NCBI GenBank assembly: GCA_025839675.1 | Contig: CP104013.1 | Coordinates: 2,460,001 to 2,492,000, forward strand | Length of the DNA: 32,000 nucleotides | Direction: 5' to 3' | Source of the DNA: Candidatus Lokiarchaeum ossiferum | GTDB lineage: Archaea > Asgardarchaeota > Lokiarchaeia > Sigyniarchaeales > Promethearchaeaceae | Shown here: positions 24,383 through 24,700 of the stretch, piece after piece | Position numbering within the stretch: the first letter of the stretch is position 1 | How the letters are laid out: the number at the start of each line of letters is the position of its first letter | The notes under the pieces: generated by a model | Database searches by the model: none | Told to the model about the DNA's origin: nothing | Seen by the model: only the letters and a program-made list of their open reading frames with translations | Made by a program: the position numbers and the translations under genes

Positions 24383-24700
24383 TTACATTCCACCCGAGTG
24401 ACTGGTCACTAAATCCAATTCTGCAACCACCACATTCTGATCTCCAACAGATTGAGACGTTTGAGCCAAATCTTTGAACAGATCCCCTTTTCGAATGGTT
24501 TTCCCCGAATTAAAAATTTGGTGCTGATCATACAGCTGTGAAAGTTGTTGACTCTCTAATGGTCGACCCGTATTCGTTAAAGTTTGAATCGCTTCAGAAA
24601 AAATTCTATCAATGCTCATATCAGGGTTACTGATTTTAACAAAGAACGGTTTGTTTGATAAAGCTGTATTAATCTTGACTACATAATTTTCTTCTGACAT
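24383..24700 (-). CDS. Ubiquitin-like (beta-grasp) small protein ending in Gly-Gly-Met
   Basis: 105 aa. HQIFNSGKTIRKGDLFKDL parallels ubiquitin [18 protein letters not shown]. C-terminal VVVAELDLVTSHSGGM parallels STLHLVLRLRGG plus one extra residue. Confidence 0.55.
   Translation of the reverse strand: MSEENYVVKINTALSNKPFFVKISNPDMSIDRIFSEAIQTLTNTGRPLESQQLSQLYDQHQIFNSGKTIRKGDLFKDLAQTSQSVGDQNVVVAELDLVTSHSGGM

Follow-up and report, generated by a model that had tools for sequence, protein, structure and literature searches.

A candidate family of divergent ubiquitin-like proteins with a C-terminal H-x-G-G motif in Lokiarchaeia

Among the described systems closest to the one considered here, that of Caldiarchaeum includes a ubiquitin (CsUb) with a beta-grasp fold, which shares 31% identity with eukaryotic ubiquitin (PMC6043591), is encoded in a Ub-E1-E2-RING-Rpn11 operon, and is made as a precursor whose diglycine (GG) is followed by an extension; the JAMM enzyme CsRpn11 cuts this precursor exactly after the GG (PDB 6fnn; PMC6043591, PMC5654768). 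Ubiquitin-like (Ubl) proteins are also already known from Asgard archaea, and ubiquitin-like signalling in these organisms is central to ideas on the origin of eukaryotic protein tagging. The published annotation of the sister species P. syntrophicum MK-D1 (Imachi 2020 supplement) includes a canonical ubiquitin gene (DSAG12_00424) beside Rio1, three COG0476 E1-like genes, a COG1310 JAMM gene, and UBC-type E2 genes. In the present work, we analyzed a stretch of 32,000 nucleotides of Candidatus Lokiarchaeum ossiferum (contig CP104013.1, positions 2,460,001 to 2,492,000; hereafter, the window), a piece of Lokiarchaeal chromosome with a GC content of about 0.33, which carries a gene that the original prediction had described as a stand-alone ubiquitin-like gene (hereafter, the Ubl gene). 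We consider it somewhat probable, on balance, that this gene represents a new Ubl family, orphan in sequence, whose product is formed with residues past the GG (a GG-X precursor), cut by a JAMM-type enzyme, and activated by an E1-like enzyme encoded elsewhere, and which viruses have adopted as an N-terminal fusion module.

The gene, a minus-strand open reading frame (ORF) whose product of 105 residues ends in SGG-Met, was confirmed in its exact coordinates and codons (Table 1), and both peptides quoted in the original prediction, HQIFNSGKTIRKGDLFKDL and VVVAELDLVTSHSGGM, were found in its translation, the C-terminus of which reads ...AELDLVTSHSGGM (SHSGG-M). The product corresponds, with 100% identity, to the Candidatus Lokiarchaeum ossiferum protein NEF87_002067 (UYP45782.1), named "hypothetical protein" at NCBI and already labelled "Ubiquitin-like domain-containing protein" in UniRef. 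The lack of any database domain match and an NCBI label that says merely "hypothetical protein" might be taken to indicate a chance ORF or a mis-annotated non-coding stretch, but the conservation data rule this explanation out, and its probability is practically negligible. In fact, 78 homologues were retrieved at E ≤ 0.01, and the nonsynonymous divergence (dN) from eight orthologous or closely related copies is 0.14–0.28, the synonymous divergence (dS) being saturated in seven of the eight pairs and dN/dS being 0.16 in the remaining one; moreover, the synteny and the Shine-Dalgarno-like and TATA-like elements are conserved, and the fold is predicted with confidence. The Ubl ORF is under strong purifying selection.

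The C-terminal end of the protein bears on its processing. In the alignment of 53 family domains (down to 21% identity), the sole invariant columns are G103 and G104, and four further residues (G45, L53, H60, and H101) are conserved in at least 90% of the sequences. A [H/Q/Y]-x-G-G motif occurs at the same position in 134 of the 164 proteins retrieved, the remainder being mostly fragments; it reads HSGG in 84 cases, HVGG in 16, HAGG in 12, HTGG in 8, and otherwise in 14. Such conservation of the GG is far beyond chance. Furthermore, the GG sits four to five residues past the strand predicted at residues 88–99, and this distance is kept throughout the family, while what follows the GG is unconstrained: among the 134 members, no residue follows it in 20, one residue in 60, two to six in 23, seven to 30 in 4, and more than 30 in 27, and the residue at position +1 has 17 different identities among the homologues or is absent. 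Read from the sequences, this variable tail is the pattern of a removable extension, and it is shared with the archaeal precursors processed by JAMM enzymes (CsUb/CsRpn11 and SAMP/JAMM1), whose extensions past the GG also vary in sequence and length. Cleavage after the GG is, in our opinion, strongly implied by this comparison. The claim that the protein is a GG-X precursor, therefore, has good comparative support as far as processing is concerned, whereas the E1 activation that had been part of it, like the conjugation and the targets, is something that we infer. Autoproteolysis at GG-X was considered and rejected, there being no conserved nucleophile at position +1.

The structure prediction that had been proposed as a check led to a ubiquitin-type beta-grasp. 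The AlphaFold2 model, obtained with 37 homologues, has a predicted local distance difference test (pLDDT) value of 88.3 and a predicted template modelling score (pTM) of 0.78; it includes strands at residues 5–12, 19–23, 60–64, 67–69, 80–85, and 88–99, helices at 30–43 and 47–59, and a flexible tail (residues 100–105), of which residues 103–105 are disordered. The Foldseek search of the PDB placed ubiquitin first (5yt6_A, E 3.4e-4) and the Caldiarchaeum ubiquitin in complex with the Rpn11 homologue second (6fnn_C, E 5.4e-4, template modelling (TM) scores 0.56/0.64), these top matches having a probability of 1.00 and TM scores of 0.48–0.64. The lower ranks include ubiquitin mutants with insertions at positions 35–36, many UBL and Ras-binding domains, and SAMP1. 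In the BFVD library of viral structures, the matches are mostly viral ubiquitin-family proteins, including those of bovine viral diarrhoea virus and of giant viruses. According to the model, the fold is a ubiquitin-type beta-grasp with two additions, that is, a second helix (47–59), inserted after helix 1 and before strand 3, and an additional strand (80–85) paired to the long last strand. The protein had been described as longer than ubiquitin owing to an extension of about 35 N-terminal residues and a loop; the greater length is real, but the N-terminal residues are part of the core in the model (beta1, beta2, and the start of helix 1), and the extra length corresponds to the helix 47–59 and the strand 80–85.

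At the sequence level, none of the known Ubl families recognized the protein. It had no match to any Pfam family, PF00240 included (E ≤ 10), and nothing was retrieved from NCBIfam; even at E ≤ 1, 53 diverse family members did not match any Ubl family of Pfam, the profiles PF00240, ThiS (PF02597), Urm1 (PF09138), and Ufm1 (PF03671) each scoring in none of the 53. Similarly, no Ubl was found among the PDB sequences with either the single sequence or the family profile, and the hhalign probabilities of the family profile against ubiquitin, NEDD8, SUMO1, Urm1, UFM1, SAMP1, SAMP2, MoaD, and ThiS (each a single sequence) were all below 1%. The profile comparison with ubiquitin, Urm1, ThiS/MoaD, and SAMP that had been suggested was, therefore, negative, and the description of the protein as a "divergent family member at best" is fair. 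The ubiquitin-like segment pointed out earlier was recovered by BLASTP against human ubiquitin as the same local match of 20 residues, DQHQIFNSGKTIRKGDLFKD, with a pairwise E of 0.045; by itself, this match is not significant, and it is suggestive only because the structure model places it in the equivalent strand 3/strand 4 region.

The comparison with CsUb can be read in the same terms. CsUb is the second-best structural match to the Ubl protein, and CsRpn11 is the best PDB sequence match of P0165, the product of a gene located beside that of P0135, a distant member of the Ubl family. The two differ in that the host copy of the Ubl gene lies outside any conjugation operon, and in that the Ubl family shows no sequence similarity to ubiquitin that could be detected, is enlarged by one helix and one strand, and ends in H-x-G-G rather than in L-R-G-G. 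The canonical Asgard ubiquitin (MK-D1 DSAG12_00424, ending in ...QAGG) occurs in the same organisms and has a beta-grasp, a GG end, and a RIO-family kinase as neighbour, but it is recognized by the CDD model cd01805, whereas the H-x-G-G family is recognized by no ubiquitin model; for this reason, we consider the latter to be separate and much more divergent. In a recent preprint (bioRxiv 10.1101/2025.11.01.685982), an MK-D1 "ubiquitin" was found by BLAST and is a close match to human ubiquitin; this is probably the canonical one. Our literature searches returned no description of the H-x-G-G Ubl family.

The 27 members whose sequence past the GG exceeds 30 residues (reaching about 300 at most) continue into unrelated cargo, which begins directly after the GG in every case. 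Two divergent members (P0081 and P0132) carry a dUTPase, P0085 a TrmB-type winged helix of the helix-turn-helix (HTH) class, and P0082 a region with a weak PGDYG match; other cargo, as read from the sequences, includes several Cys-rich, zinc-ribbon, or TFIIB-like regions. The fact that the junction always falls exactly at the GG, together with the interchangeable cargo, argues for a GG-specific host protease acting in trans. The context of the fusion genes was examined in three loci (L021, L022, and L023; Table 1), which are dense arrays of small, same-strand, and mostly unannotated genes. In L023, the fusion adjoins a gene for a terminase large subunit (L023:2-1582; phrog_38, E 9.3e-22), L021 encodes an ArdC-type anti-restriction protein (E 5.5e-66) and a PAPS reductase (E 1.1e-37), and L022 encodes a 5'-3' deoxyribonucleotidase. 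These loci are probably Lokiarchaeal viruses or mobile elements with a host-derived Ubl module, their viral assignment being based solely on PHROG matches; a scan of IMG/VR viral contigs did not retrieve any relative.

Fusions of this kind have a parallel in eukaryotes, where ubiquitin is made as polyubiquitin followed by one residue, as fusions with ribosomal proteins, or, in the case of FUBI, as a fusion with eS30, and where pestiviruses, baculoviruses, and giant viruses encode ubiquitin fusions. As in those precursors, the GG is followed by one variable residue or by unrelated cargo, the junction lies exactly at the GG, and the module is carried by virus-like elements. Differently from them, the host is archaeal, the loci are virus-like (one with a terminase), and the cargo consists of dUTPase, HTH, and zinc-ribbon proteins instead of ribosomal proteins.

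A different interpretation of the conserved end is that the protein is a binding UBL that is never conjugated, its partner being, for instance, the proteasome, a small GTPase (bound in the manner of a Ras-binding domain), or a factor of transcription or ribosome biogenesis. The GG would then be no more than a hinge, or a protease site through which the module acts as an N-terminal domain that can be detached. The prominence of Ras-binding and UBL domains among the fold matches, the small GTPase gene lying just 5' of the Ubl gene of a distant subfamily in three loci, and the position of the host gene among housekeeping rather than conjugation genes would all fit this interpretation, as would the many relatives in which the Ubl is the N-terminal domain of a larger protein. 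A degenerate Ubl copy without H-x-G-G was observed at the C-terminus (...ELDLVASRGLIKEIYDC) of P0128, a leucine-rich-repeat protein of 332 residues; this protein and the other relatives lacking the GG imply that the Ubl domain can exist without a conjugatable end. Nevertheless, a role limited to binding leaves unexplained why the two terminal glycines are the sole invariant residues, and why the proteins usually end zero to six residues past the GG with an unconstrained tail; furthermore, the UBL domains of multidomain proteins generally have no terminal GG, and the adjacency of Ubl and JAMM genes points to cleavage at the GG. We regard this interpretation as rather unlikely, albeit one to be taken seriously.

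Regarding the enzymes that a modifier would need, the window contains no E1, E2, or JAMM gene, as had been noticed from the sequence and as resulted from Pfam scans of unnested ORFs of at least 90 codons, from a MoeB tblastn search, and from scans for the JAMM and HPN..C motifs. The tblastn search with MoeB did not retrieve anything from 23 further loci either, and the neighbourhoods of the MK-D1 paralogue and of the distant members contain no E1, E2, or JAMM gene, except for the JAMM genes of two loci (L018 and L025). The first of them belongs to a Promethearchaeota metagenome-assembled genome (MAG) and encodes the distant member P0135, which ends in RRYVGGH; 175 nucleotides downstream lies a JAMM gene whose product, P0165 (364 residues), has the exact JAMM motif HSHANFSVFSSGTD (H-x-H-x7-S-x2-D), matches Pfam JAB with E 2.2e-4 and 21.5 bits (just under the cut-off of 22.5), and has the Caldiarchaeum Rpn11 homologue as its best PDB sequence match (E 1.3e-4). 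The same Ubl and JAMM genes are 2.2 kb apart in L025; a JAMM gene is also present in L024, where a nearby ORF of 115 codons does not belong to the Ubl family. Moreover, a paralogue of P0165 (41% identity) is directly followed by a ThiF-type E1 gene in a further locus (L026). Of the three outcomes that the original prediction had named as refuting it, none was obtained: the predicted fold is a beta-grasp, the GG is conserved, and E1-like genes are present in MK-D1, the sister species carrying the syntenic orthologue. Overall, the links between the L. ossiferum Ubl gene and a conjugation machinery may be described as circumstantial.

Two gene arrangements were observed around these JAMM and Ubl genes. 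In L026 (1225-4743), four same-strand genes code for an unknown protein (268 residues), the JAMM protein (290 residues, HSHANLSVFFSGTD), the ThiF-type E1 (323 residues), and a second unknown protein (271 residues), with no recognizable Ubl of the H-x-G-G family within 7.9 kb; this cluster may be an uncharacterized conjugation module. In the RRYVGG subfamily, a pair of genes coding for an unknown protein of about 192–204 residues and a small Arf/Ras/Roc GTPase recurs 5' of the Ubl gene; the pair adjoins it in L018 and L025, and a single gene intervenes in L020 (Table 1).

The same data bear on the possibility that the protein is a sulfur carrier of the ThiS/MoaD/Urm1/SAMP type, in which a MoeB/UbaA-like enzyme would adenylate and thiocarboxylate the GG to serve tRNA thiolation or the synthesis of cofactors, conjugation being absent or secondary. 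The Ubl family resembles SAMP1/2/3, ThiS, MoaD, and Urm1, some of which act as protein modifiers in archaea as well, in its beta-grasp, in its C-terminal GG, and in an insertion placed as in MoaD; as for these proteins, an E1-like adenylating enzyme encoded elsewhere and a JAMM-type protease would act on it. The structural matches include SAMP1 (3po0) and the ubiquitin mutant with a MoaD loop at positions 35–36, which is where the extra helix is placed, and the extensions of the CsSAMP precursors are removed by JAMM enzymes (PMC6043591). One MK-D1 E1-like gene lies close to those for a TtcA-type thiolase and a JAMM protein. CysO/Mec+ and QbsE/QbsD also represent sulfur carriers with extensions that are removed by JAMM enzymes. 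On the other hand, the family is without a match to the ThiS, Urm1, and other carrier profiles and, differently from ThiS, MoaD, and Urm1, without any link to genes of sulfur metabolism: no MoeB/ThiF/UbaA, sulfurtransferase, thiamine, molybdenum cofactor (molybdopterin), or tRNA-thiolation gene was found within ±10 kb in nine neighbourhoods. In addition, a canonical protein of the ThiS family is already encoded in a related MAG (L018:772-1107), and it would make little sense for viruses to fuse a sulfur carrier with dUTPase, HTH, or zinc-ribbon proteins; to our knowledge, virus-borne cargo fusions have not been reported for the SAMP, ThiS, MoaD, or Urm1 families. We, therefore, consider a sulfur carrier improbable.

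Ufm1 homologues have recently been reported in nine major Asgard clades on the basis of structural modelling and comparison (PMC12962969, 2026). Since Ufm1 is a beta-grasp protein made with a short C-terminal extension, the Ubl protein might be one of them. This would be hard to reconcile with the absence of Pfam Ufm1 matches among the 53 members, with an hhalign probability of 0.1% against human UFM1, and with a structural search in which ubiquitin came first and Ufm1 structures fell outside the top 50 PDB matches. Moreover, mature Ufm1 ends in a single glycine (V-G) and the Ubl family in H-x-G-G, and the latter is found almost only in Lokiarchaeia, compared with nine clades. This assignment appears very improbable.

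Returning to a JAMM-trimmed and E1-activated modifier, we can depict the following scenario. The host copy would be made as a precursor with one extra methionine past the GG; a GG-specific protease encoded elsewhere, most likely of the JAMM/Rpn11 type as for CsUb, would remove the residues after Gly104; and the exposed glycine carboxylate would be adenylated by a ThiF-type E1-like enzyme of the genome and then transferred to targets. Viruses or mobile elements would carry the Ubl-GG module fused N-terminally to their own proteins, and this host machinery would likewise release or tag them. Several data weigh against this scenario. No sequence profile ties the family to any proven modifier, and neither in the window nor in any of the syntenic loci is the Ubl gene accompanied by an E1, E2, or JAMM gene. 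The Ubl-JAMM adjacency was found only in the divergent RRYVGG subfamily, in closely related MAGs, with a JAB score below threshold, and the AlphaFold2 model of P0165 is poor (pLDDT 47.6). Finally, a few full-length relatives (P0075, P0114, P0140, and P0128) have no GG.

A further step, which we put forward only tentatively and hold to be possible rather than likely, is that Lokiarchaeia have a third, lineage-specific Ubl conjugation pathway, distinct from that of the canonical Asgard ubiquitin and from the SAMP/Urm1-type carriers, and that viruses repeatedly captured its modifier, the H-x-G-G Ubl, as an N-terminal tag, cleavable or conjugatable, on dUTPase, transcription-factor-like, and zinc-ribbon proteins. 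If true, this would be the archaeal counterpart of the ubiquitin-fusion genes and of the viral hijacking of ubiquitin in eukaryotes. In case the viral fusions are cleaved or conjugated, the viral use of a host Ubl system would predate eukaryotes, and the fusions would be natural substrates for finding the responsible protease. Up to now, only the Asgard Ubls detectable by sequence have been counted; the H-x-G-G family is invisible to Pfam and NCBIfam and yet has the fold of a modifier and, as a second hallmark, a GG that is invariant, exposed, and made in precursor form. What appears to be new is a distinct and largely Lokiarchaeia-restricted family, recognizable by the H-x-G-G signature and by two insertions in its structure, along with its conserved placement beside the cyclophilin and Rio2 genes, and its virus-borne GG-cargo fusions.

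The family is small: when 1.84 billion cluster representatives (50% identity) were searched exhaustively with the family profile, 73 proteins were retrieved at E ≤ 0.001. It is confined to Promethearchaeota (formerly Asgard), mostly Lokiarchaeia, and a scan of species-representative genomes yielded 13 loci (L. ossiferum itself not being among them), 12 of which belong to Promethearchaeota or to uncultured-archaeon MAGs. In the remaining one (L015), contig JAIOSR010000298.1, labelled as a Desulfobacterales MAG, encodes a copy with 71% identity; in all likelihood, this contig is archaeal and was mis-binned. The Ubl gene occurs in L. ossiferum as well as in MK-D1, the two cultured Lokiarchaeia, which makes direct proteomic and biochemical testing possible.

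P. syntrophicum MK-D1 has a second paralogue elsewhere in the genome (P0065; L001/L016). In this locus (L001:10001-10827), the next ORF, of 166 codons, begins four bases before the end of the Ubl gene, and its product, as judged from the sequence, starts with a signal-peptide-like segment and carries a hydrophobic helix at the C-terminus; an HNH endonuclease gene lies nearby, and the region is possibly a mobile or defence-type one. No conserved partner was found beside the paralogues, the flanking genes coding for 163–227 residues in L001, L021, L022, and L023 being mutually unrelated.

As for the genomic setting, the order TFE-alpha, Ubl, cyclophilin, Rio2, methyltransferase (opposite strand), and LSm is conserved in five places, that is, the L. 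ossiferum window, MK-D1 (L006, with an orthologue that is 74% identical), Ca. Harpocratesius (L004/L014), and the MAGs L003 and L012; LSm matches in Pfam were obtained in syntenic loci at the position of the 79-codon ORF of the window (Table 1). The Shine-Dalgarno-like element is kept in the orthologous loci as (G/T)AGGGA or AAGGAG, GAGGGA being among the forms, and boxes resembling the TATA-like element ATAATATATAG also recur in them, which suggests that the Ubl gene has its own promoter. The T-rich spacer at the other end of the gene, before the cyclophilin gene, might act as a terminator of the archaeal oligo-T type.

Table 1. Coordinates of the Ubl gene, its sequence elements, and its neighbours in the window, and of related genes in other loci (locus:coordinates).
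Feature	Position	Strand	Description
Ubl gene	24383..24700	-	ATG start, 105 codons + stop (24383-24385); predicted beta-grasp product
H101-S102-G103-G104 codons	24389..24400	-	H-x-G-G signature, presumed cleavage and activation site; direct read: H101 24398-24400, S102 24395-24397, G103 24392-24394, G104 24389-24391
Met105 codon	24386..24388	-	lone residue past the GG; presumed removable tail
Shine-Dalgarno-like AGGGA	24706..24712	-	6-10 nt 5' of the ATG; function inferred
AT-rich TATA-like element ATAATATATAG (coding strand)	24734..24744	-	about 35-45 nt 5' of the ATG; inferred
T-rich spacer 3' of the Ubl stop	24330..24382	-	two T6 runs on the coding strand; sequence only
Cyclophilin-type peptidyl-prolyl isomerase	23801..24250	-	directly 3' of Ubl in all orthologous loci examined
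Rio2 kinase	22806..23720	-	next gene of the conserved block
Class I S-adenosylmethionine-dependent methyltransferase	22093..22779	+	part of the conserved block
79-residue ORF at the LSm (Sm-like) position	21776..22015	-	identity by position and sequence reading; completes the block
TFE-alpha (TFIIE-alpha)	27433..27858	-	directly 5' of Ubl in other genomes
C11 (clostripain-like) peptidase	24898-27348	+	inserted between TFE-alpha and Ubl; 816 residues
Ubl-GG-cargo fusion genes	L021:5336-5872, L022:4141-4770, L023:2361-2900		
Unknown protein + GTPase pair	L018:8675-9814, L020:4254-5392, L025:1143-2315		

The C11 peptidase gene is present in the conserved block of L. ossiferum only; a functional link with the Ubl gene is, therefore, unlikely. 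From its sequence, the peptidase has N- and C-terminal hydrophobic stretches, and another C11 peptidase gene (L018:17483-19420) was observed 7 kb from a distant Ubl gene. The "RING-like membrane protein" noticed 2.8 kb away is a protein of 553 residues (19946-21607, minus strand) with many hydrophobic, probably membrane-spanning stretches and a cytoplasmic cluster of four CxxC pairs (about residues 231–290). It matches zf-RING_2 with E 0.011 and 16.4 bits, below the cut-off of 27.3, and SLATT_1 with E 0.016. Past LSm, the orthologous loci, in which no homologue search was made, have no gene comparable to it. With such a weak zinc-finger score and no counterpart after LSm, the RING designation was not borne out, and a functional link to the Ubl gene is unsupported.

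Concerning the Rio genes, the canonical ubiquitin gene of MK-D1 adjoins Rio1 (DSAG12_00424/00425), and the divergent Ubl gene lies near Rio2, with the cyclophilin gene in between. The occurrence of two Ubls beside paralogous Rio kinases may be a coincidence, the result of an old block duplication, or a sign of a functional link. Lastly, the plus strand of the window encodes, between 15910 and 18749, a protein of 409 residues without a Pfam match, followed by a pyruvoyl-dependent arginine decarboxylase and a deoxyhypusine synthase, which may form a polyamine/hypusine gene cluster.

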